A stretch of 33,440 nucleotides of DNA. Origin: Eledone cirrhosa (taxonomy: Eukaryota). Below, piece after piece: positions 2,760 to 18,960 of this stretch. Position numbers and translations under genes: made by a program. Location: NCBI GenBank assembly GCA_964016885.1, contig CAXHJY010000111.1:1-33440 (forward strand), given 5' to 3'. The first letter of the stretch is position 1. Each line of letters begins with the position of its first letter. Below the pieces are notes generated by a model. That model had not been told where the DNA came from. It ran no database searches and saw only the letters and a list, made by a program, of their open reading frames with translations.

Positions 2760-2997
2760 AAGAGAGGGGGAAGGGGATAGGGTGAGAAACTCTGTGCCTT
2801 GGTCGGTTGCATCCCACTGACAAAACTGCAAAGGAATTTCCACGAACAATGACCACCGGCACCCACTGCAACAGTCACCCCTCCCCCTCTCGGGGTCCTT
2901 CCTCAGACGGGTTGCTGACGTTTCGATTTTACAGAGGAGCCCGGCTGTACGGGGTGCAAGAACATCTGAGATGTCGACGGTGACCGACGCGACAAAG
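2760..2997 (-). mobile_element. 3' fragment of a CRE-like (RLE-type) non-LTR retrotransposon
   Basis: Reverse complement aligns with 18630-18830 (GTTCTT..ACCCCGTAC, ATCG.AACGTC, TCTGAGGAAGGA). It encodes VVIVRGN, resembling the C-terminal 'IQRGN' motif of CRE-type ORFs. Confidence 0.65.
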
Positions 2998-3017
2998 TTA
3001 GAATATTCGAAAGTGTT

Positions 3018-3131
3018 AGAGACGGTGAATTGACAGAGACGTTAAAACAGCGGATTAAAAATGTTTCCTTATTTATTCCGGCTTTGTGTTCTGAGTTTCA
3101 AGCACGATGGGGTCAGCTTTACCTTCCTTTC
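3018..3131 (+). mobile_element. Degenerate 5' part of SINE family A
   Basis: GGTGAATTGACAGAGACGTTA...GTTCTGAGTTTCAAG...GGTCAGCTTTACCTT, colinear with the other copies. Confidence 0.5.
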
Positions 3132-3137
3132 AAGGTA

Positions 3138-3194
3138 GTTGTTGTTGTTGTTGTTGTTCTTCTTCTTCTTATTATTATTATTATTATTATTATT
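3138..3194. repeat. Compound microsatellite (GTT)n(CTT)n(ATT)n, 5' flank of Tx1 copy 1
   Basis: Read directly from the sequence. Confidence 0.95.
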
Positions 3195-3410
3195 GAATGC
3201 CATGGTTGACGGAGGCTCGGCTCTGTAAGGTATAGTAATTTTTAACCGTTAAAACAATTGTAAATTGTTTAAAACTTGAACCAAATTGTTGATAAAGACA
3301 CCCTCCTCCTCGTGAGAGGGGTCTTTCTGTCCGTTATTTGGCCCTTCGGGGTTAAATAACCAGTTATTGGGGTTTTGTACCCAAAATTTCATTTTAAACA
3401 AAAAAACAAC

Positions 3411-5507
3411 ATGGCTACGAAAAAGAAATTTCATACGTCACTCCCACTCATTCCGTCTTCTTCTTCCTCAATCATCACTACAGCAGAGAGAAGATTGTCT
3501 CTCTCCCTCCCTTCTTTAAATGTGTCTCTCTCCCTCCCTTCTCTTTCACAAGCGACGAAAGAAAAGAAAAGTCTCGTGCAAAGCGTGCAAGGTTTCTCCA
3601 CGACGACGACGACAGCGACGAAACAGGTGTGCGGGAAATACGAAAACCCAGTTCATTCGTCTGACGTCAGGAATAATAGCAGTAGCAGCCGTAATAACAA
3701 CAGCAACAGTGACAATGAAAACAACAGTAGCAGCCGCAACAGCATCACCAGCAGCATAAACAACAACAGCATTAGCAGCAGCAACACCAACAACAACCAC
3801 AGCAACAGCGGCGGAGGCAGTAGTCGTAGTACCTGCAGCAACAACAAAAGTACCAGCAGCTCTGACGACAACAACAACAGCAGAGAAAAACCAATCTCAT
3901 TTGCAGGTATTGCGAAAAACTTGGAAACAATCCTCATAACAAATGAGGAATTAGAGGAAGCGAAGAAGATGGTGACAAAGAACGGACACCGAGCAATCTG
4001 CAAGGCAGCGAAAAATTTTTTCGAAACCCAAGAGCACTGTACGGTCACGTACCGTACAGTAAGTACAAAATCCCGTAGGGTGGAAAGAGCCACAGAGGCC
4101 CAAATACAAAAAGCCTTGGGGTCTGTGTGGCAGCGGAAAACGCACATCACCCGAGGCAAAAAATATGCCACCGTAGACGTACTTTTTGCCACACCCCAGG
4201 AGGCAAAGGCCCAATCAGTAGTGACCCTAAGGAGCGAGGAAATGGTGTTGGTGCCCTCCTACTGTGGGCAAAAAATTGTGAGGGTCAAACTGACCCACGT
4301 CCCCCCCGGAATGACCCCTTCTTGGCTGGCCGCGTCTGTCCTCGTCGGAATCGAGGACAAAACAACTGTACTGCAAGTACAGAAAAAAGTAAGAGAAGAT
4401 TGGGTCGGCTCCTCCATTGAGATGCTAATCCAAACCAACCAGGAGTGCATCGAAGCTATCCCGGATGTGATAGACTTCGATAACGGCACTCAACTGCCCA
4501 TAAGTGTTGAGGGCAAACGCCCGAAATGCTTTCGCTGTGGATCGAAGACTCACCTCAGGGCCTTCTGCAACGAGAAGACCCTGAGAAAGGAGAAAACCCC
4601 CCTCCTTCCGAATCCGGCTCCACGGCTACCAGCAACAGGACAAGCGGCAACCAGGAACGATAGGCCCGTGGCACCCATACCCACTCCACGGAAATCAAAA
4701 ACAGCAGCAGCAGTGGAAATACTAACAACAACAACAGCAATACCAAATGCAGCTGCAACAGAGACTCCAGTGCAAACATCACCAACAACAACAAGTGAAA
4801 GAGTGGAGTTGGTACCCCTCCCCGACCTCACAGAATCAGACATGGAGTGTGAGGTGGGAGAGAGATGGCAAAAGGTCGTAAGAAGGCACAAACGCAGAAG
4901 CAGCGCATCGTCGCCTTTGAAAAGGGAGGAAAGAAATGAGAAAAGGGTAAAGTCTACTGCAAAGAGACCCACAGCAGCAACAACACCAACACCATCACCA
5001 CCCACACTAGCGCCACCATCACCACCGGCGACAACCCCACCGCCAACAACACCTTCAACACCACCACCACAAGCACCAACATCGCAAACACAACAACAAA
5101 ACACACACACCCAGCAACAACGACAAGAAAATAGCAGAACCACACCCCACCCCCAGAAAAACAAATGCACGGCAATAAATACACACAACAAGAAACTAAT
5201 GACTTACATAATTGAACACACAGACATTTCACAACAGGACTACATAATACCAGCACCAATCAAAACGCCAACTAACATAAGACTGCTAAAAATAGCACAG
5301 AAACAATACACAAATATTAAAACGAAATTCCCCAACGCAGTTGGTGATTTCAGGGACCTAGGAGGAACCATCAATCGAAGAGTATACTCAGACATTCTCT
5401 TAGAAGAGCCGACGACCAGCCGAAGGGACGATTCAACGGTCCCTTCACCAGACGATCAAGTGAAAAGGGATGTAAAAACCATCCCTCCTCTACCAAAAGT
5501 ACGGTAA
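3411..5507 (+). CDS. Tx1 ORF1 (gag-like nucleic-acid-binding protein), 698 aa from the first ATG
   Basis: Open frame from ATG 3411 (MATKKK). CX2CX4HX4C knuckle CFRCGSKTHLRAFC, N/S-rich N-terminal and P/T-rich C-terminal linkers. Homologous to the copy 2 ORF1 core. Confidence 0.85.
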   Translation: MATKKKFHTSLPLIPSSSSSIITTAERRLSLSLPSLNVSLSLPSLSQATKEKKSLVQSVQGFSTTTTTATKQVCGKYENPVHSSDVRNNSSSSRNNNSNSDNENNSSSRNSITSSINNNSISSSNTNNNHSNSGGGSSRSTCSNNKSTSSSDDNNNSREKPISFAGIAKNLETILITNEELEEAKKMVTKNGHRAICKAAKNFFETQEHCTVTYRTVSTKSRRVERATEAQIQKALGSVWQRKTHITRGKKYATVDVLFATPQEAKAQSVVTLRSEEMVLVPSYCGQKIVRVKLTHVPPGMTPSWLAASVLVGIEDKTTVLQVQKKVREDWVGSSIEMLIQTNQECIEAIPDVIDFDNGTQLPISVEGKRPKCFRCGSKTHLRAFCNEKTLRKEKTPLLPNPAPRLPATGQAATRNDRPVAPIPTPRKSKTAAAVEILTTTTAIPNAAATETPVQTSPTTTSERVELVPLPDLTESDMECEVGERWQKVVRRHKRRSSASSPLKREERNEKRVKSTAKRPTAATTPTPSPPTLAPPSPPATTPPPTTPSTPPPQAPTSQTQQQNTHTQQQRQENSRTTPHPQKNKCTAINTHNKKLMTYIIEHTDISQQDYIIPAPIKTPTNIRLLKIAQKQYTNIKTKFPNAVGDFRDLGGTINRRVYSDILLEEPTTSRRDDSTVPSPDDQVKRDVKTIPPLPKVR

Positions 5508-5542
5508 GTGGTCTTTCCCATCTTTTCCACTCTATTTTAAAC

Positions 5543-8500
5543 ATGACCTCACTCAGAATAGGCAGCATAAATGCGCGTGGCTTGGGGTCGTCATGGAAGC
5601 AGGGTCACCTGCTCAACGACCTCAGGTCACTAAACATAGATGTAGTGGCCATCAGCGAGACCAGAATCTCCGAAGCACGGGCCTTCGCACCGATCTTCGG
5701 CGGCTACGATGTGTACGCATCTCCCAGCCGTCCTGGATCCGGTGGAGGAGTTGCTGTACTTTTTCGGAGAGGTTTGGATCTCGCCATACGGGCCATCTTC
5801 CTGGACCCAGAGGGTAAGCTGGTGGTGCTGGACGTGACCAGCGGAGACGGGCAAGCTTTCAGGCTAGTGGCCGTCTATGCCCCGACAGGAGCAGGGCGGC
5901 CTGATTTCTTCCGGCGTCTGGAGACCTTTCTTGGAACGTCGCGCTCTTTAGTGTTAGTGGGCGACTGGAACGGGATCTTAGATGCACGCTGGGACTGTGT
6001 GGGATTAGCGGATAGGGGTGGAGGGTGCAAGAGCCTCACCAACCTGCTCAGGCGTTTTGAACTGTCTGACAGGTACCGATTGGATTTCCCGAATGTGCCA
6101 ATGTGGACTTGGACAAACCGCATAGGGTCATCCAGATCATATCTAGATAGAGTATTTTGTAGGGAAATAGATAGGTCTAGCATAGGCTGTCCACAATTCA
6201 AGATAGTCAGCTACACGGACCACAAATTCGTGACCTGTGTGCTTGACTTAGATAGGCTTCATAGACAAGGACCCGGCTACTGGAAGCTAAACGCGTCCTT
6301 ACCAGCGCGCAAGGCCTACAGAGACCGGATTAACGAACTAGTTAAGCGGGCGTTGACGGGGGCCATCGTCAACAACAAGTGGTGGTTTGCTCTGAAAAGA
6401 GCGATTAGAATAGAATCGATTAGGTTTAGTAAGGCTTTAGCAATAGAGAAAAATAGAGCAGAGGGAGAACTAGTTAGAAAATTAGACGAGGCGCTTAGCA
6501 AAGGCATTGCGACCGACGTGCTTGCGGCGAAATTGGCCCTTGACCAATTCTTCAATGCAAAGCACGAAGGCTGCGTTGTCAGAGCTAGGGTGCGTGCTCT
6601 CAGACACGAGGGGACGAAAGCCGTTCAATGGGCCCGAGTGGCGGAGGCGCGTCGTGGCAACAAAGCCACGATCCGGTCTTTGGTGGACCACGACGGGCGC
6701 ATGCTACTCGATCCCGGGCAAATGTGTGAAGCTTTTCAGCGACACTTCGCTCAGCTGTTCGGGGGCAGCGGGGGGCCGGGTAGAGGGATGGACTTTAGTG
6801 TCTACCTCGACGGACTGCCGCGGCTCTCGGCCACTGAGGCGAAGTGTTGCGAAAAGCCGATAACAGCCGCTGAAGTAAGGGAGGCAATGACTGGCTGCAC
6901 AAGGGGTAAATCGCCTGGTTTGGATGGTCTGCCCTATGAACTTTACGTACAGATGCCAGACTTGTTCGGAGGCCTCTTAGCGGACGTCTACTGCAACTGG
7001 CAACAGAACGGGAGAATTCCCAGTTCTGTGAGCCGAGGAGCGGTGGCACTGCTGAGAAAGGATCCGAACAAGGGGGATAACATAGACAATTTCCGGCCCA
7101 TAACTCTGCTAAACACAGAGTTTAAGATTTTGGCCAAGGTGCTAGCAAAGAGGTTGGCGCTTGTCGTTGGTGGTCTGGTGGGAGAGGCGCAGACATGCGC
7201 CATTCCCGACAGATCCATCCACGACAACCTCCACCTCATGCGATACATCGTAGAGAGGGTAGCTAGGGAACCTGGCACGGGTGGGTCCTTGATCAATTTA
7301 GATCAGTCGAAAGCTTTCGATAGGGTCGACCATCGTTACCTAGCGGCAGTCCTGAGGGCGGCTGGCTTTGGGCCCGTCTTCAGAGGCTGGATCGCTGCCA
7401 TGCACAGCGACATCTGCTCTGTGGTGAGAGTGAACGGTCACCTGTCGGAACCGTTCAACATCATGCGCTCGGTCCGCCAAGGATGTCCCCTCTCGTCCCT
7501 CTTGTACGTATTGACTCTCGAGCCATTACTGCACAAACTGGAGACGTTGAGGGGAGTCCCGCGCGAACTAGGATGCGGAAGATCCGTGTCAGCATATGCG
7601 GACGATGTCACCGTAGTGGTGTCGAACGCCAAACACATCGAGGCGATCGGCACTACACTAAGAGAATACGAAGCGGTGACAGGAGCAATGATCAACCAGG
7701 AAAAGTCAGTGGGCCTGCAGCTCGGCACCTGGAGAGGCAGGTCCATGCCGTCCAACAGCGTCGTCGGGCGCTGGACGGACGGACCGGTTAAATTGCTAGG
7801 GGTCTGGTTCGGTCCGGACCTCCAGACGGACAAAAACTGGGACGAGGTGACGAGCAGGGTGGCTTCTCTCACCCAGAAATGGGCGGAGAGGAAGCTATCC
7901 CTGAAAGGTCGAGCGGAGGTGGCTAACGCGTACATCGCGTCTGTCATCTGCTACCGCCTAACCGTCGTACCTTGTCCTAAGCCTCGCCTGACTGCGCTGG
8001 AGCGTTTGCTCTTTCGCTTTTTGTGGAAGGGACGTGCTCCGATGGTCAGGCGGTCCATCTGTTGTCAACACCCGCTACGTGGAGGGCTGGGCATGCCGTG
8101 GCTGATGATGCGCAGGCACGCGCTCAGGCTACGACATCTCCACCTCTTCCTCGACGGTGATCAGGTGTGGTCGCCGTTTGCTAGACGCGTTTTTCCCCAG
8201 CTCGTTTCCTTGACGGAGCTGCAGTCCTGGGTCAAGCGAAGACCGAGAGGGAGCGCCTGGAGACTGGAATGTCTTCAGGCGCTCACAGCCCTCGACCAAT
8301 CGGGCAATGTGATCGGTGGAAACTCCACCTCGGCGTTCTATAGAGGATTAGTGGAGGGGAAGAGCGACGACGTACTTGGGGAAACTCTAGGCGTCGACGA
8401 AAATCAACTAGCCAATCTCTTCGGAAGAACTTTCGGGCCGGGGCCTATGGACAACTTCCAGAAATCTCTGGCCTGGCAGTGCTACCGAGGAGCCTTGCCA

Positions 8501-8962
8501 GTTCGGGATAAACTCTACAGGCATGGAGGTGCCGTCAGCCGGGCATGTCCGAGATGCGCGCAGGGCGAGGAAACCGTCCTGCACGCACTCGTCCAGTGTC
8601 CGAAAATTGCTGACTTGTGGGTTTATGTCGAACACCTGCTGTCGCGTTTAGGACGGATCCAGCTATCATCTGAGTCTATCGTGAGGATTGCCCCGCCCTC
8701 CTCCTTTAGCCGGGAAGGGCAGGCAGTTTTTATCTGTCTGGTGGCCATGGCGAAAGAGATAGTATGGTGGACACGTTTGAAAGGGCTGAAGACGAGCACT
8801 TACCTCTTCGGTGATGCTCTGATTGACTTTTTCAAATTTCATTTGAAAAGGAAAATCAGAGTAGAGAAGGAAGTGCTCTCTTCCCAGCATTTTGTTGAAA
8901 GATGGGTGAGAGAAGCAAGAATGGCCCGAGTGAATGGGCCGACTCTGAGTATATATCTGTAA
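5543..8962 (+). CDS. Tx1 ORF2: AP-endonuclease, reverse transcriptase and C-terminal zinc finger, 1139 aa
   Basis: APE motifs NARGL, ISET, VYAP, GDWN, YLDRV, TDH. RT motifs KSPGLDGL, NFRPITLLN, LDQSKAFDRVDH, RQGCPLS, YADD. C-terminal CPRC-X8-H-X4-C. Confidence 0.96.
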   Translation: MTSLRIGSINARGLGSSWKQGHLLNDLRSLNIDVVAISETRISEARAFAPIFGGYDVYASPSRPGSGGGVAVLFRRGLDLAIRAIFLDPEGKLVVLDVTSGDGQAFRLVAVYAPTGAGRPDFFRRLETFLGTSRSLVLVGDWNGILDARWDCVGLADRGGGCKSLTNLLRRFELSDRYRLDFPNVPMWTWTNRIGSSRSYLDRVFCREIDRSSIGCPQFKIVSYTDHKFVTCVLDLDRLHRQGPGYWKLNASLPARKAYRDRINELVKRALTGAIVNNKWWFALKRAIRIESIRFSKALAIEKNRAEGELVRKLDEALSKGIATDVLAAKLALDQFFNAKHEGCVVRARVRALRHEGTKAVQWARVAEARRGNKATIRSLVDHDGRMLLDPGQMCEAFQRHFAQLFGGSGGPGRGMDFSVYLDGLPRLSATEAKCCEKPITAAEVREAMTGCTRGKSPGLDGLPYELYVQMPDLFGGLLADVYCNWQQNGRIPSSVSRGAVALLRKDPNKGDNIDNFRPITLLNTEFKILAKVLAKRLALVVGGLVGEAQTCAIPDRSIHDNLHLMRYIVERVAREPGTGGSLINLDQSKAFDRVDHRYLAAVLRAAGFGPVFRGWIAAMHSDICSVVRVNGHLSEPFNIMRSVRQGCPLSSLLYVLTLEPLLHKLETLRGVPRELGCGRSVSAYADDVTVVVSNAKHIEAIGTTLREYEAVTGAMINQEKSVGLQLGTWRGRSMPSNSVVGRWTDGPVKLLGVWFGPDLQTDKNWDEVTSRVASLTQKWAERKLSLKGRAEVANAYIASVICYRLTVVPCPKPRLTALERLLFRFLWKGRAPMVRRSICCQHPLRGGLGMPWLMMRRHALRLRHLHLFLDGDQVWSPFARRVFPQLVSLTELQSWVKRRPRGSAWRLECLQALTALDQSGNVIGGNSTSAFYRGLVEGKSDDVLGETLGVDENQLANLFGRTFGPGPMDNFQKSLAWQCYRGALPVRDKLYRHGGAVSRACPRCAQGEETVLHALVQCPKIADLWVYVEHLLSRLGRIQLSSESIVRIAPPSSFSREGQAVFICLVAMAKEIVWWTRLKGLKTSTYLFGDALIDFFKFHLKRKIRVEKEVLSSQHFVERWVREARMARVNGPTLSIYL

Positions 8963-9224
8963 ACTAAAGGTGGAAAACTGGGAGAGGGCACTTGCCTTGG
9001 TGGTCAGGGTCATTGTGGCTTTTTACTGGGCTTTCTCCACAAATGTCCCTCCGAAGTCTCACCCCCTATTGGGGAATTTTTCATTGTTATTTTCATTGTT
9101 ATTTTTGTTACATCCTCTGTTTTTGTTTTTTTTACACGCAGAAATGCCCATTTGTACCGTCCTGCATTGTCCTGCACTGTCCTTAATGTCTACTTTATGT
9201 AAACCCTTGTGGTTAATAAAGAAA

Positions 9225-9226
<2 letters not shown>

Positions 9227-9280
<54 letters not shown>
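9227..9280. repeat. (ATT)18 separating the two Tx1 copies
   Basis: Read directly from the sequence. Confidence 0.97.
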
Positions 9281-9489
9281 GGCGACCTACGTAGTAAATC
9301 GCATCATCGTGAGCTCCGCAAAGGTTTGTTATTTCCGTTTGTTAAAAATTGCCATTTATGGAAAATTTTTATTGTTAACTATATATAAGCGCACATACAT
9401 TGTTTTCCGAAAAGGACACCCAAAAAGATTGGGGCCTTGTGCCCAAAATTTAAACTTTTATGATTATCAAAAAAATTCTTTGAAAAAAA

Positions 9490-11489
9490 ATGGCTAATTC
9501 ACCACTGCACCAAGCAGCTGAAAGCCTTTCTCACAAATTAACACCTCACACCGACACCACCATTGTAAATGATTATACGTCTTCCAACACAAACAATTTA
9601 AGCACTAGCAATATTTTAAATTTGTCTCAGGCAGACATTCATTTCCCGCCATTACCAATGACTGCAGGTGTTAAAGCCGACACCACCACCACCACCACCG
9701 CGACAACCACCACCCCCACCACCACCGCGACAACAGAAACAAAAGGAAAAAATAAATCAACTCGTGATGTCGAAATATTTTCAACCAAAATGGACTCTCC
9801 CAAACCGAACTTCACTGACGTCACCACTACCACAACTGAAACTAAAATTAATAATAACAAAAATAACGATAGCAACAACAACAACAATGACATTAAAAAA
9901 ACGACCCTGAGTTTTGCCAGAGTAGCAAAACAGTTCGAAGCATTTACGGTAACTCAGGGGGATTTAGAAAATGCCGCCAAACAAATGGTAAAGAAAGATG
10001 GGTACAGGGTCAGCCCCCCCCCCCCCCCACCACCACCTAATAAAATGGAGCATCGGCACCTATGCACCGTGTCGTATCGAACAATAAATGTAAAATCGCG
10101 CCGAGTGGAACGGGCATCCGAGTCCCAAATCCAAAAAGCTTTGGGACATGTGTGGGCAAGAAAAACCCACATCAGACGTGGGCAGAAGTATGGAACCGTG
10201 GACGTGTTCTTTGAAACACCAGAGGAGGCTAGAGAACACTCCATGGCCCCATTAAGAAGTGACGACTTCACACTCGTCCCAAGCTATTGTGGCCAGAGAC
10301 TCGTAAAGATCAGGGTGACTCACGTTCCACCAGCCATCGAAATTCCCTGGCTAATAGCGGCCGTCCTCGCCGGCATCGAAGCCAACACAAAGATAATAGC
10401 AATAGCAAAAGAAAAGCAGGAGAACTGGTCCGGATCTGGGATGGAGCTCCAGATCCAAGCGGACCAAAAAAGCATTGAGGAGATCCCAGAGGTAATAGAC
10501 CTCACTGACGGCAGCCACCTCACCGTAATTGTCGAGGGCAGAAGGCCTAGGTGTGTCGTTTGTGGTGAAGGAACCCACCTAAGGGCTTTCTGCCCTCAGG
10601 CTAAAAGGTTGAGGCCACCTCTCCTACCCACCCCAGTGACACAACCATCAACACCACCAGTAGCAGAGATGGCAGCAACAACTGTAGCAGCAACAACAGA
10701 AGCAACTATAACAGCAACAACCCCAGCAACAGTAGCAAAACCAACACCACCACCGCCAGCAAAACCAACACCACCACCACCCAACGCTTCAGAACTAGCA
10801 CCAGCGCCCACACCATCCAACACGCCACAACCAAAACTAACGCCTGTGGAGGATTTTCCACTCTCCGGCCTGTCACAACTGGAGACAGATTGTGACGACG
10901 AGGAGTGGGGAAATGGTATCAGGAAAAAAAAAAGAAACCAAAAAATAAAAAATTCTCTTCCTTCCCCCTCCAAAAACAAAATACAGAGGGAAACAAATAA
11001 AGTAACAAACAAAAAAGTTAGGACAGATATCCCACCATCCACACCAGCATCACCAACCCCATCAACCCAAACACCAACACCATCACCATCATTAACTCCA
11101 ACACCACCATCACCTACACCACAAAAGTCACCAAAATGCGATACAGAAACAAACCCACAACAAACGCAAACAAAACAAAACAACCAAAACGATACACACT
11201 ACACAGCATTAAATTTGAACAATAAGCAATTATTACACTACATTCAACACAACACCACATCACAGAAAAAGACTACACAACAACCCCAAAATTCACACCA
11301 CCTCCACACATACAAATCACTCGCATCACACAGAAAACGTTCATGACACTAAAACAAAAATTCCCCAAAGACATCGGAGACTTCCGACAAGCACTCTCCA
11401 GGAGGATTTATAAGGACATCCTTCCTGAGGAGGCCACAAGCAGTGAAAAGGATGGAGAAACCGTCCTTCCCCTACGAGAAGTAAGGTAA
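9490..11489 (+). pseudogene. Tx1 copy 2 ORF1 with one frameshift near 11257
   Basis: CCHC knuckle CVVCGEGTHLRAFC. After about 11257 the shifted frame reads ITEKDY...KQKFPKDIGDFR...RRIYKDILPEE...LPLREVR* (TAA 11487-11489), matching the copy 1 C-terminus KFPNAVGDFR...RRVYSDILLEE...LPKVR*. Confidence 0.85.
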
Positions 11490-11523
11490 GTGGTCTTTCC
11501 CATCTTTTCCACTCCTTTTCAAC

Positions 11524-14500
11524 ATGACCTCACTCAGAATAGTCAGCATAAATGCGCGTGGCTTGGGGTCGTCATGGAAGCAGGGCCACCTGCTCAACGA
11601 CCTCAGGTCACTAAACATAGATGTAGTGGCCATCAGCGAGACCAGAATCTCCGAAACACGGGCCTTCGCACCGATCTTCGGCGGCTACGATGTGTACGCA
11701 TCTCCCAGCCGTCCGGGAACGGGGGGAGGAGTTGCTGTGCTTTTGCGGAGAGGTTTGGATCTTGCCATACGGGCCATCTTCCTGGACCCAGAAGGTAAGT
11801 TGGTGGTGCTGGACGTGACCAGCGGAGAAGGGCAAGCTTTCAGGTTAGTGGCCGTCTATGCCCCGACAGGAGCAGGGCGGCCTGATTTCTTCCGGCGTCT
11901 GGAGACCTTTCCTGGAACGTCCCGCTCTTTAGTGTTAGTGGGCGACTGGAACGGGATCTTAGATGCACGCTGGGATTGTGTGGGATTAGTGGATAGGGAA
12001 GGAGGGTGCCAGAGTCTCACCAACCTGCTCAGGCGTTTTGAACCGTCTGACAGGTACCGAATGGATTTCCCGAATGTACCAATGTGGACTTGGACAAATC
12101 GCATTGGGTCATCCAGATCATATCTAGATAGAGTATTTTGTAGGGAAATAGATAGGTCTAGCATAGGCTGTCCACAATTCAAGATAGTCAGCTACACGGA
12201 CCACAAATTCGTGATCTGTGTGCTTGACTTAGATAGGCTTCATAGACGAGGACCCGGCTACTGGAAGCTAAACGCGTCCTTACCAGCGCGCAAGGCCTAG
12301 AGAGACCGGATTAGCGAACTAGTTAAGCGGGCGTTGACGGGGGCCATCGTCAACAACAAGTGGTGGTTTGCTCTGAAAAGAGCAATTAGAATAGAGTCCA
12401 TTAGGTTTAGTAAGGCTTTAGCAATAGAGAAAAATAGAGCAGAGGGAGAATTAGTTAGAAAATTAGACGAGGCGCTTAGCAAAGGCATCGCGACGGGCGT
12501 ACTTGCGGCGAAATTAGCCCTTGACCAATTCTTCAATGCAAAGCACGAAGGCTGCGTTGTCAGAGCTAGGGTGCGTGCTCTCAGACACGAAGGGACGAAA
12601 GCCGTTCAATGGGCCCGAGTGGCGGAGGCGCGTCGTGGCAATAAAGCCACGATCCGGTCTTTGGTGGACCACGATGGGCGCATGCTACTCGATCCCGGGA
12701 AAATGTGTGAAGCTTTTCAGCGACACTTCGCTCAACTGTTCGGGAGAGTGGCGGGCCGGATCGAGGGATGGACTTTAGTGTCTACCTCGACGGACTACCG
12801 CGGCTTTCGGCCACTGAGGCGGAGTGTTGCGAAAAGCCGATAACAACCGCTGAAGTACGGGAGGCAATGACTGGCTGCACAAGGGGTAAATCGCCTGGTT
12901 TAGATGGTCTGCCCTATGAACTTTACGTACAAATGCCAGACTTGTTCGGAGGCCTCTTGGCGGACGTCTACTGCAACTGGCAACAGAACGGGAGAATTCC
13001 CAGCTCTGTGAGCCGAGGAGCGGTGGCGCTGCTGAGAAAGGATCAGAACAAGGGGGATAAACATAGATAATTTTAGGCCCATAACTCTGCTAAACACAGA
13101 GTTCAAGATTTTGGCCAAGGTGCTAGCAAAGAGGTTGGCGCTTGTCATTTGTAGTCTGGTGGGAGAGGCACAGACATGCGCCATTCCCGACAGATCCATC
13201 CACGACAACCTCCACCTCATGCGATACATCGTAGAGAGGGTAGCTAGGGAACCTGGCACGGGTGGGTCTTTGATCAATTTAGATCAGTCGAAAGTCTTCG
13301 ATAGGGTCGACCATCGTTACCTAGCGGCAGTCCTGAGGGCGGCTGGCTTTGGGCCCGTTTTCAGAGGCTGGATCGCTGCCATGCACAGCGACATCTGCTC
13401 TGTAGTGAGAGTGAACGGTCACCTTTCGGAACCGTTCAACATCATGCGCTCGGTCCGCCAAGGATGTCCCCTCTCGTCCCTATTGTACGTATTGACTCTC
13501 GAGCCATTACTGCACAACTGGAGACGTTGAGGGGTGTCCTGCGCGAACTAGGATGCGGAAGATCCGTGTCAGCATATGCGGACGATGTCACCATAGTGGT
13601 GTCGAACGCCAAACACATCGAGGCGATCGGCACTACACTAAGAGAATACGAAGCGGTGACAGGAGCAATGATCAACCAGGAAAAGTCAGTGGGCCTGCAG
13701 CTCGGCACCTGGAGAGGCAGGTCCATGCCGTCCAACAGCGTCGTCGAGCGCTGGACGGACGGACCGGTTAAATTGCTAGGGGTCTGGTTCGGTCCAGACC
13801 TCCAGACGGACAAAAACTGGGACGAGGTGACGAGCAGGGTGGCTTCTCTCAACCAGAAATGGGCCGAGAGGAAGCTATCCCTGAAAGGTCGAGCGGAGGT
13901 GGCTAACGCGTACATCGCGTCCGTCATCTACTACCGCCTGACCGTCGTACCTTGTCCTAAGCCCCGCCTGACTGCGCTGGAGCGTTTGCTCTTTCGCTTC
14001 TTGTGGAAGGGACGCGCTCCGATGGTCAGGCGGTCCATCTGCTGTCAACACCCGCTACGTGGAGGGCTGGGCATTCTGTGGCTGATGATGTGCAGACACG
14101 CGCTCAGGCTACGACATCTCCCTCTCTTCCTCGACGGTGATCAGGTGTGTTCCCCGTTTGCTAGACCCGTTTTTCCCCAGCTCGTCTCCTTGACGGAGCT
14201 GCAGTCCTGGGTCAAGCGAAGACCGAGAGGGAGCGCTTGGAGACTGGAATGTCTTTAGGCGCTCACAGCACTCGACCAATCGGGCAATGTGATCGGTGGA
14301 AACTCCACCTTGGCGTTCTGTAAGGGATTAGTGGAGGGTAAGAGCGACGACGTACTTGGAGAAACTCTAGGCGTCGACGAAAATCAACTAGCCAATCTCT
14401 TCGGAAGGACTTTCGGGCCGGGGCCTATGGACAACTTCCAGAAATCCCTGGCCTGGCAGTGCTACCGGGGAGCTTTGCCAGTTCGGGATAAACTCTACAG

Positions 14501-14942
14501 GCATGGAGGTGCCGTCAGCCAGGCATGTCCGAGATGCGCACAGGGCGACGAAACCGTCCTGCACGCACTCGTCCAGTGTCCGAGCATTGCTGACTTGTGG
14601 GTTTATGTCGAACACCTGCTGTCACGTGTAGGACGGATCCAGCTATCAGCTGAGTCCATCGTGAGGATTGCCCCGCCCTCTTCCTTTAGCCGGGAAGGGC
14701 AGGCAGTTTTTATCTGTCTGGTGGCCATGGCGAAAGAGATAGTATGGTGGACACGTTTGAAAGGGCTGAAGACGAGCACTTACCTCTTCGGTGATGCCCT
14801 GATTAACTTTTTCAAATTTCATTTGAAAAGGAAAATCAGGGTAGAGAGGGAAGTGCTCTCTTCCCAGCATTTTGTTGAAAGATGGGTGAGAGAAGCAAGT
14901 ATGGCCCGAATGAATGGGCCTTCTCTGAGTATGTGTCTGTAA
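11524..14942 (+). pseudogene. Tx1 copy 2 ORF2, disrupted
   Basis: Near identical to copy 1 ORF2 but with TAC>TAG at 12298-12300, a -1 indel near 12750, +1 near 13060, -1 near 13517 and CAG>TAG at 14256-14258. Confidence 0.93.
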
Positions 14943-15210
14943 ATTAAAGGTGGAAAACTGGGAGAGGGCACTTGCCCTGGTGGTCAGGGTCACTGTGGTC
15001 TTTTAATGGGCTTTCTCCACAAATGTCCCTCGGAAGTCTCCCCCCTATTGGGGAATTTTTCTTTGTTATTTTATTACATCCTCTGTTTTTTTACACGCAG
15101 AAATGCCCATTTCTACCGTCCTGTATTGTCCTGTACTGTCCTTAATGTCTACTTTATGTAAACCCTTGTGGTTAATAAAGAAAACTTTATTATTATTATT
15201 ATTATTCGCC

Positions 15211-15268
15211 TACTAAAGTACCAGTAATGCACTGGGTAATTGCTGGCCTCGTGCCAAAAGTAGAAACA
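15211..15268 (+). mobile_element. 5'-truncated SINE family A 3' end with a 13-bp TSD
   Basis: AAAGTACCAGTAATGCACTGGG...GTGCCAAAAGTAGAAACA is flanked by ATTATTATTCGCC at 15198-15210 and 15269-15281. Confidence 0.75.
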
Positions 15269-15275
15269 ATTATTA

Positions 15276-15355
15276 TTCGCCCACTTATTCCTGAGATGGT
15301 CGTAGGGACAGGGGCCTCAAACACACCTTCCAGCGGGTCCTGTCAGAAGCAACCA
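15276..15355 (-). mobile_element. RTE-clade LINE extreme 3' end fragment
   Basis: TTCGCCCACTTATTCCTGAGA...TCAGAAGCAAC matches 28245-28323. Confidence 0.75.
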
Positions 15356-15494
15356 TTGAACTAAATCTTATAGACATGTTTCTTTACGTATCTGGAAGAT
15401 TAAAGATTATGCCACTCTCATGAGATGAAATATAATAGAAAACTGTTGTTTTGTTATTTGAATATAATGCTTATATTATTATTACTTTCTTTAG

Positions 15495-15935
15495 CATAGT
15501 TACGTTCCTTTACGGTCTGAGTTCAAATCCCGTCGAGGTTAAATTTTGTTTTTCATCCTTACGGGGTCGATAAATTAAAGTACAAGTAATGTACTGGGTA
15601 ATTGCTGGCCTTGTGCCAAAAGTAGAAACAATTATTATTACTTTCTTTATTTTTGTATTTATTTTATATTTGTTGTTGTTGTTTTGTTTGCACGCCAAGG
15701 AGGAACCCCATCTCGGATGCTTGTATTCACGATATAATTCTTTCGGGCTGTGGATTGGCAGTATCGGTAGAGAGTCGGACACCATGCTTTGAAGCATAGA
15801 GTTACGTCCCTTTATGATCTGAGTTCAAATGCCCCCGAGGTTAACTTTGCCTTTCATCCTTACGGTGCCGATAAAATAGAGTACCAGTAATGTATTGAGT
15901 AATTGCTGGCCTTGTGCCTAAAATGGAAACAATTA
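15495..15935 (+). mobile_element. Two SINE family A copies in direct orientation (about 15495-15638 and 15745-15935)
   Basis: Both contain TCTGAGTTCAAAT..GAGGTTAA..TTTCATCCTTACGG..GATAAA..GTAC.AGTAATGTA..GTAATTGCTGGCCTTGTGCC..GAAACAATTAT. Confidence 0.85.
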
Positions 15936-16167
15936 TCTAAGATTTATGACCATAGGAAGGGTTTATTTAGCAAGGTTGATAAATAAAATACCACTAGGTG
16001 CTAGGGTTGATTCTTTTCCTAATATCTCTTTCTCACTAGGAATAAACAATAACAACATTATAGAGTCTTTGATGTTTGTATTTATTTATTGTTTTTATTA
16101 TAGTTTGAAAGTAATAATGTATATTTTTATGAAAATCATGTTTCCATTTTATGGTTCACGATTGTCA

Positions 16168-16779: not shown

Positions 16780-17088
16780 GTATAGGCCGTAACTCTTGAG
16801 GTAGTCGTAGGGGTGCCATATTGGGCAATTTTTTAAACCCGGTGGAGCATATCTACCTTCCAGCAGATTTCTTCCAGAGAAGAATAGAGTAAGAGAATGG
16901 AAGTGAGAAAGAGATATAGATGAAGAATCGATTCAGTACATGACTGGTACTTTTTTTTTATCAACCAAGAAAGGATGAAAAGCAAAGTTGACCTCGGCGG
17001 GATTTGAACTCAGAGAGGAGAGGAGAGAAGTGGAACGAATACCGCAAAGCATTCTATCTGACGTTCTAACGACTCTGCCAACTAACCC
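16780..17088 (-). mobile_element. SINE family A head with an alternative 3' tail
   Basis: Head GGATGAAAAGCAAAGTTGACCTCGGCGGGATTTGAACTCAG. Tail (reverse complement TCTCTGGAAGAAATC...TTACGGCCTATA) is shared with 26965-27075. Confidence 0.65.
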
Positions 17089-18088: not shown

Positions 18089-18109
18089 TTATTGTTGATG
18101 GTCTTCTTT

Positions 18110-18960
18110 CAGGTGTATCGAGTCTGGCTTGGACCAACTCCGCCTCGCCTACCTCCGCTCCGCTTCACATCCAAACAGCGGAGCATGGCTCAATTCAGTG
18201 CCCTCCTTATCAACCGGTACCCTTCCTAATGACGAGTTCACTCGCATCGGCGTTGTCCAACACCTCAACCTCCGCGTGGATGAGCCACATAAATGCTGTT
18301 GCGTGGTGATCGTTGCACTCACTGTCTTGCACTCACTGTCTTGCCGCCAGAGCGCAGGCCGGTTCCCTAGACATGTCGTTCTCAATGACATATTGAGAAG
18401 GAGCCTGGACGCAGCAGGTTTCCCATCACAACTGGAACTAGCAGGCTTTGACTGTGGAGACGGCATAAGTCCTGACGGAATTACCCTCTTCCCATCTAGG
18501 ATGCCACATGTTGTGACATATTCTCCTCCTCCAGGTTAATCGCTTCAGCCACAAACCCTGGTACTGTGGCTCGCTATGCAGAGGAAAGGAAGATAAACAA
18601 ATACCTGGTATTGTCCGGCAGCTTCCTCTTGACACCGGTCGCCATCGAGACCTTAGGCGTTCTTCGACCCCGTACTGCTGAGCCCCACTGCAAGATCGGA
18701 ACGTCGGCGGCCCATCTGAGGAAGGAGCTCCGCGGGAATGGTTTTGCCGATTTTTCCACGGGTCGCAGCCCCCTTACCTCCGTGTCCTAGGCCCAGAGCA
18801 CAATCACCCTCACCCCCTCCTCATTCTTCCATGGCACTAGAACCCTTATCTTTCCCTTCCTTTTCTGTTTATTTTATATTTTCTTATTATATATTCCATT
18901 CTTTCTTCTCAATCTACTTTTTTCTGTTTCTATTAAACTGTATTTTACTATAATAAACAA
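18110..18960 (+). mobile_element. 5'-truncated, decayed CRE-like non-LTR retrotransposon (zinc finger and restriction-like endonuclease region, 3'UTR)
   Basis: Translation SGAWLNSVPS...CCC...HSLSC...GRFPRHVVLNDILRRSL...G..PDGITLFP, then AEERKINKY...PVAIETLG...LRGN. These are the RH, PD and AE..K..KY/ET.G motifs of RLE-type ORFs. T-rich 3'UTR with AATAAA near 18952. Confidence 0.8.

Follow-up and report, generated by a model that had tools for sequence, protein, structure and literature searches.

Tandem Tx1-like LINEs in Eledone cirrhosa pair one ORF2 with two diverged 5'UTR-ORF1 modules, probably through an old exchange

Here, we analyze a stretch of DNA from Eledone cirrhosa of 33,440 nucleotides (nt) (GenBank assembly GCA_964016885.1, contig CAXHJY010000111.1, positions 1 to 33,440 of the forward strand; hereafter the window). 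It carries two full-length L1/Tx1-type long interspersed nuclear elements (LINEs), arranged head-to-tail within an (ATT)n microsatellite. The two copies, A and B, have nearly identical second open reading frames (ORF2) and 3' untranslated regions (3'UTRs), but highly diverged 5'UTRs and ORF1s. We propose that an old template-switch exchange of 5'UTR plus ORF1 probably founded two co-amplifying lineages. The 5'UTR-ORF1 halves would then derive from long-separated sister lineages, whereas the spacer-ORF2-3'UTR half is common to both copies, and the second lineage is probably still co-amplifying. The two copies are laid out as follows.

3138..3194, +, compound microsatellite (GTT)7(CTT)4(ATT)8 immediately before copy A; likely target of the insertion
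3195-9226, +, copy A, intact element
3195..3410, +, copy A 5'UTR; motif common with B at 3366-3406
3411..5507, +, ORF1 type A, 698 amino acids (aa), intact
5459..5542, +, junction zone A: final 14 codons of ORF1, stop codon overlapping G|GTAAGT, and a pyrimidine-rich spacer of 35 nt
5504..5556, +, candidate GT-AG segment of copy A, 53 nt; by frame arithmetic, ORF1 would continue in frame into ORF2 without it
5543..8962, +, ORF2 of copy A, 1139 aa, intact; APE endonuclease, reverse transcriptase (RT), zf-RVT
8963..9226, +, 3'UTR of copy A; AATAAA at 9215-9220
9227..9280, +, (ATT)18 between copies A and B
9281-15188, +, copy B, broken element
9281..9489, +, copy B 5'UTR; motif common with A at 9428-9475
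9490..11489, +, ORF1 type B; frame change near 11257, early stop at 11346, homologous C terminus in another frame to 11489 (true stop 11487-11489)
11442..11523, +, junction zone B; ORF1 stop lies between the arms (11445-11462 and 11492-11509) of a predicted long RNA stem
11486-11537, +, candidate GT-AG segment of copy B, 52 nt
11524..14942, +, ORF2 of copy B, broken by two stops and three one-base indels
14943..15206, +, 3'UTR of copy B; AATAAA at 15174-15179, terminal (ATT)6 at 15189-15206

Divergence across the ORF1-ORF2 junction

Self-BLAST of the window returns a single 3,790-nt match between the copies (5459-9247 vs 11442-15206). Its identity of 95.2%, from 5459/11442 to the 3' end, bears out the near-identity of ORF2 and 3'UTR described in a first-pass annotation made from the sequence. 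Ungapped identity in 150-column windows is 0.40-0.69 over the 5'UTR and ORF1, 0.74 in the junction window, and 0.93-0.99 from 5529 to 9226. The ORF1 core (residues 205-392 of A, 186 codons) has 55% amino acid identity, close to the half estimated by eye in that annotation, with a nonsynonymous divergence (dN) of 0.33. Its synonymous sites are saturated, with a proportion of differences (pS) of 0.765 (bootstrap 0.68-0.87). In contrast, ORF2 (1135 codons) is 95.6% identical, with a synonymous divergence (dS) of 0.102, dN of 0.020, and pS of 0.095 (0.076-0.117). The dS gap across the boundary is therefore more than sevenfold; similar values in the two ORFs had been named beforehand as the outcome that would count against an exchange.

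Without any exchange, ORF1 and the 5'UTR might simply evolve much faster than a constrained ORF2, through an arms race or their A/C-rich composition. ORF1 is indeed A-rich (36-38% A vs 23%) and of low complexity outside its core. However, synonymous sites in the ORF1 core are saturated against 10% in ORF2 on the same RNA, the switch falls within about 40 nt, and ORF1 is itself under purifying selection (proportion of nonsynonymous differences, pN, 0.27 vs pS 0.77). We consider this explanation extremely improbable.

The two ORF2s have separated under purifying selection. They differ by 133 substitutions, of which 79 are synonymous (dN/dS 0.2), and dS is uniform along the frame (p 0.34). When the same substitution types were redrawn under a neutral null that kept CpG status, the synonymous count averaged 41 and peaked at 59, and none of 5000 draws reached 79. 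The roughly 55 synonymous changes in excess thus accumulated while the lineages were actively transposing, and the exchange is probably older than both insertions. This does not favor the earlier suggestion that read-through RNA from the tandem promoted swaps at this locus.

The dominance of synonymous differences also argues against the idea that ORF2 and the 3'UTR were homogenized by local gene conversion within the tandem or by a collapse in assembly. It is true that the copies are adjacent and that identity continues to the 3' end. But the ORF2s are set apart by three indels and two stops besides the 133 substitutions, and decay after conversion would be neutral, which does not match a dN/dS of 0.2. 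Furthermore, copy A is 99% like the multicopy consensus of a public sequencing run (X4, see below), which leaves too little decay to explain the difference. Conversion or collapse is thus largely refuted and, in our judgment, very improbable.

The breakpoint maps within about 40 nt, at 5464-5503. With the ORF1 stops placed in register and no gaps allowed, the best two change-points are 5464, where identity rises from 31% to 77%, and 5503, where it reaches 100%. They agree with the abrupt rise that had been noticed in the last ORF1 codons. Across the last 14 of these, 32 of 42 nt are common to A and B. Third positions are identical in 13 of 14 (12/13 in the Fisher comparison), against 74/178 in the core (p 6e-4). 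The ORF1 tail thus belongs with the ORF2 half, though it is more diverged than ORF2.

The 5' modules had been called very different. They are deeply diverged, but they are not unrelated. Their 5'UTRs have a motif of ~45 nt in common (3366-3406 vs 9428-9475), with a score reached by 0/1000 shuffles, and a C-terminal block of ORF1 can be aligned (61/111 nt; third positions 11/37). We therefore regard the 5' modules as diverged homologues. A common hairpin in the 5'UTRs did not rise above shuffles (z 0.3 and 0.0).

In the mechanism that we propose, ORF2 protein (ORF2p) would copy one RNA from its 3' end by target-primed reverse transcription, past ORF2 and the spacer as far as the final ~14 codons of ORF1, and would then jump to a sister-lineage RNA near the ORF1 stop. 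The hybrid would be active, and the spacer and any ORF2 translation signals would stay with ORF2. Both ORF2s would later drift apart under selection, to a dS of ~0.1, and one copy per lineage would afterwards insert into the same (ATT)n run, because the copies have a common endonuclease and (ATT) tail. Target preference would explain the tandem arrangement without any special cause. A 14-codon duplication at the A tail was considered as a marker of direction; it matched at 21/42 nt, tied with another of 685 windows, and was rejected.

Occurrence in public sequencing runs

Of 24 public sequencing runs listed, 20 contain part of copy A, none of them recorded as RNA. Four were compared with positions 2760-11495. 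In X1, the unique 5' flank (2760-3128) is present with 0 differences at a depth of 9.4, and summed contig depths, which are not copy numbers, reach ~155,000 for ORF1-A, ~211,000 for ORF1-B, and ~615,000 for the 5' part of ORF2. Depth ratios were taken from means over six ORF1-A bins, four ORF2 bins, and five ORF1-B bins. They give ORF2/(A+B) of 1.68 and ORF2/A of 3.97 in X1; in X7, where B is rare and two of the five B bins were dropped as inflated by microsatellite matches, ORF2/A is 2.36. In X4, a run of low depth, consensus-like contigs have depths of 6.06 (A), 3.5-4.7 (B), and 8.6-10.1 (ORF2), so that A+B is about equal to ORF2. One X4 contig (4880-7249, 19 differences, 99%) bridges the A junction.

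Nearly all X1 contigs differ from copy B at several ORF1-B sites, which identifies these sites as private decay. X7, which has another organism label and comes from another study, has B-type ORF1 contigs ~95% like copy B at depths of 160-285 (for example, 9710-10861, 50 differences, depth 285). Both ORF1 types therefore occur beyond this assembly: they are high-copy families in one organism, and both are also present in a second. The depth sums in X1 and X4 are a crude fit to two 5' modules feeding one ORF2 pool. Taken with the dS contrast and the selection on ORF2, the multicopy state of both ORF1 types elsewhere supports the central claim of the first-pass annotation, an exchange of a 5'UTR-ORF1 cassette between lineages.

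Several points weigh against this reading. Template switching is indistinguishable here from DNA-level recombination. Purifying selection on ORF2 is also expected if B is a one-off chimera that took its ORF2 from another active subfamily. X1 is possibly the window's own source sample, and the caution on its depth sums applies to the fit as well. A run of raw reads, X22, lacks the element beyond microsatellite matches, and in the compared stretch, which ends at 11495, the 15 joints inspected out of 2,694 include no second junction of B-ORF1 with ORF2.

The last of these is also what would be seen if copy B were a chimera formed once, at insertion, from a B-type 5' module and the ORF2 of a sister subfamily of A, with the B family elsewhere keeping its own divergent ORF2. 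In X4, the B-type contig stops at 11441, a single base short of the common zone, as a fork to a different continuation would cause, although low depth often breaks contigs. Hybrids made by truncation plus insertion are, moreover, proposed in PMC4120745. Yet the 14-codon tail of B is only 76% like that of A, too different for a fresh A-subfamily tail (P 0.037 even at 10% divergence), and the depth arithmetic of X1 and X4 fits a common ORF2 pool. We therefore consider a one-off chimera unlikely, and an old exchange that founded two lineages the probable reading.

Exchange may also have recurred: the crossover at ~5464 would be older than the one at ~5503, and the same ORF2 would carry still other ORF1 types. 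Two change-points beat one (log-likelihood -60.8 vs -65.1), X1 and X7 have more depth over ORF2 than over A+B, run contigs carry variant 5'UTR letters at 3361-3363, and there are other ORF1 relatives (P0134: 56% to B, 41% to A). However, the intermediate zone could reflect a constraint from RNA structure, ORF2 dS is homogeneous, and ORF2 depth is also raised by 5' truncation and related families. Recurrence is, in our view, possible but doubtful; it refines the reading of an old exchange and does not compete with it.

Runs under 17 organism labels contain words of copy A. Depth is very low in some of them (X4), and raw reads of the same study lack these words (X22). Trace DNA is the likely source, and horizontal spread may contribute.

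Classification, junction leads, and other features of the window

The elements have no long terminal repeats, a separate upstream ORF1, and a 3'UTR with a polyadenylation signal and repeat tail, all features of the L1 clade. Matches of copy A ORF2 to Pfam give the domain set of that clade (Exo_endo_phos, 3e-14; RVT_1, 1e-28; zf-RVT, 5.5e-8), and the top solved-structure match is human L1 ORF2p (1e-52), far above R2. Xenopus Tx1 ORF2 scores 330 bits, against 182 bits for human L1 ORF2p. The nearest relatives of ORF2 are an NCBI protein (79%) and then one from Argonauta hians (69%), the closest that is named; these relatives by themselves point to a probable octopod host. In a quick tree of 28 rows, with no L1 reference, the ORF2s form their own octopod clade, weakly linked to Tx1 rows (SH-aLRT 81). 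A large sister clade of ORF2s (P0003-P0066, 38-48% identity, from ENA/JGI assemblies; eight in the tree) groups with the octopod elements (SH-aLRT 100). (ATT)n flanks both sides of both copies at this one locus, where the 3' repeats may be tails.

The ORF1 core resembles two ZCCHC3-type RNA-binding domains and one CCHC knuckle. The CCHC motif is present in both ORF1s; zf-CCHC matches 15 of 24 alignment members, but not the two window proteins. Atlas neighbors of ORF1 carry RBD_ZCCHC3_1st/2nd (0.91). By sequence resemblance, ORF1 would be of Type I, which combines an RNA recognition motif (RRM) with CCHC; its RRM part may be real and is a lead. Type I ORF1s are described for Tx1-like elements (PMC5203782). 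In composition, ORF1 has 16% T beside its excess of A; ORF2 is unskewed, with ~55% GC and a CpG observed/expected ratio of 0.9, in an AT-rich host.

Neither ORF1-A nor ORF1-B gave a match at E<=0.001 in word-based searches. A full HMMER search found 300 proteins; among the 150 listed, identity to ORF1-A is at most 41%. Predicted host proteins P0134, P0152, P0179, and P0191 (astacin-like, LDL-receptor-repeat, and others; domain names assigned by eye) contain ORF1 fragments, probably as contamination of gene models by decayed copies. Metagenome loci (54 of 176 candidates) are distant, the near-full-length ones being 23-33% identical. The viral contigs searched yielded no locus, and an Rfam scan gave 0 matches.

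The junction offers two leads. First, full conservation begins with the G|GTAAGT that overlies the ORF1 stop; a run of pyrimidines comes next, and the first AG lies in codon 5 of ORF2. The GT-AG segment thus delimited ends in phase 2 in both copies, and since the phase of both ends is equal, its removal would fuse ORF1 to ORF2. An in-frame skip is therefore a candidate. Against splicing, the segment is short, and copies retrotransposed from spliced RNA would tend to lack it. None of the 26 of 54 distant loci that have upstream sequence carries a splice-donor-like word over the stop (five or six have GTRAG elsewhere upstream), so the lead is not general. The one ORF1-ORF2 fusion found among 270 proteins is P0226, a fragment of 176 aa. 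Scans for the junction pattern gave 2+2 matches, none extending beyond 23 nt, and were put down to chance.

Second, in copy B, the first bases of the common zone are predicted to pair with the spacer (pair probabilities mostly above 0.85, z -3.2). This long stem is predicted in B only; copy A has another predicted fold, and z<=-2 is reached in 17 of 100 windows of the element. The junction stem-loop is thus a weak hypothesis from folding models. It is quite improbable, in our estimation, that the ~80-nt junction acts as a coupling module that makes ORF1 cassettes plug-and-play; a stem-loop, with its 5' arm at the edge of the crossover, would then gate production of a spliced ORF1-ORF2 fusion, and deeply diverged promoter-ORF1 modules would have been swapped repeatedly onto one ORF2 across octopod genomes.

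Elsewhere in the window, short interspersed repeats occur in many copies (15207-15940, 318-491, 1037-1120, 16892-17015, and 29705-30081), some ending in (ATT)n. The tail of copy B adjoins the one at 15207; thus, the LINEs may have landed in the tail of a short interspersed nuclear element (SINE), or SINEs may use the present LINE. Other features are the following.

1519-2746, 1.2-kb array of 60-nt (ACC)-rich units, 20.5 copies; its minus strand reads as a spurious poly-Val ORF of 461 aa
17740-18073, (TGG)n, similar to the (ACC)-rich array
23633-24941, near-perfect 1.3-kb palindrome (99.8%), possibly a foldback element, possibly an artefact of assembly
31791-32053, smaller palindrome
2896-2986 and 18636-18726, opposite strands, 91-nt pieces, 77% identical, in decayed, GC-rich DNA that looks coding (about 18100-18830); probable remnants of a further retroelement

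Comparison with known systems

The elements resemble the Tx1 group (Xenopus Tx1, Kibi, Koshi, and crocodilian Tx1) in their two ORFs, an APE-RT-zinc ORF2, an RRM-like plus CCHC ORF1, and a microsatellite flank. Microsatellite targeting is known in the Tx1 families, and tandem sequential insertions are reported for Tx1-mobilized SINEs (PMC4494074). However, the repeat here is (ATT)n, whereas theirs is (TC)n, (TTC)n, or (TTCC)n, and identity to Xenopus Tx1 is only 29%, with the present elements in a clade of their own. Octopus vulgaris has 13 recently active L1-Tx1 families (PMC13282606); PMC9115989 deals with RTE and Dong elements. Neither a description of the present family nor an ORF1 exchange among Tx1 elements was found in the literature searched, and the family may already be in Repbase or in the consensus library for O. 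vulgaris (Zenodo; cited in PMC13282606).

Exchange of front halves is known from mouse L1 Tf/Gf, where the 5'UTR and ORF1 of one family are joined to the ORF2 of another, both products are active, and strand-switching and heteroduplex models are discussed (PMC3600994). As there, divergence is sharply discordant across the breakpoint here. In the mouse, however, breakpoints lie inside ORF2, and the families are a few million years apart with a conserved 3' half of ORF1; here, the breakpoint is at the ORF1 tail, and the ORF1s are 55% identical and synonymously saturated. In the reticulate evolution of CR1/L2, whole ORF1s moved between LINE lineages (PMC4120745). Those events are ancient and inferred from deep phylogeny across ORF1 types, whereas here ORF2 is 95% identical, the breakpoint can be mapped, and the ORF1 type is unchanged.

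The first-pass annotation had also drawn an analogy with 5'UTR/ORF1 replacement in L1. In the 5'UTR replacement of mammalian L1, coexisting lineages differ at the 5' end and have nonhomologous promoters (PMC5381506). The analogy holds for the 5' exchange and the coexistence of lineages. It fails for the module itself: L1 brings a nonhomologous 5'UTR onto a common element, whereas here the modules are homologous but saturated, with a significant common 5'UTR motif, and ORF1 was exchanged too.

The principle is already known, and the gain is a clean, deep, and recent example rather than a new mechanism. Should both hybrids be active, one ORF2 would function with ORF1 proteins of only 55% identity, which would show loose ORF1-ORF2 coupling. 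They would also provide a natural, mappable experiment on the coexistence of LINE lineages, with different promoters and ORF1s but the same enzyme, outside mammals; 5' replacement is reported absent in several vertebrate groups outside mammals. In addition, transposable element libraries that are RT-based or clustered at 80% can merge two biologically distinct lineages. The proposed exchange belongs to a known kind of LINE modularity, and is unusual in setting a deep ORF1 split against a 95% identical ORF2, with a breakpoint within about 40 nt.

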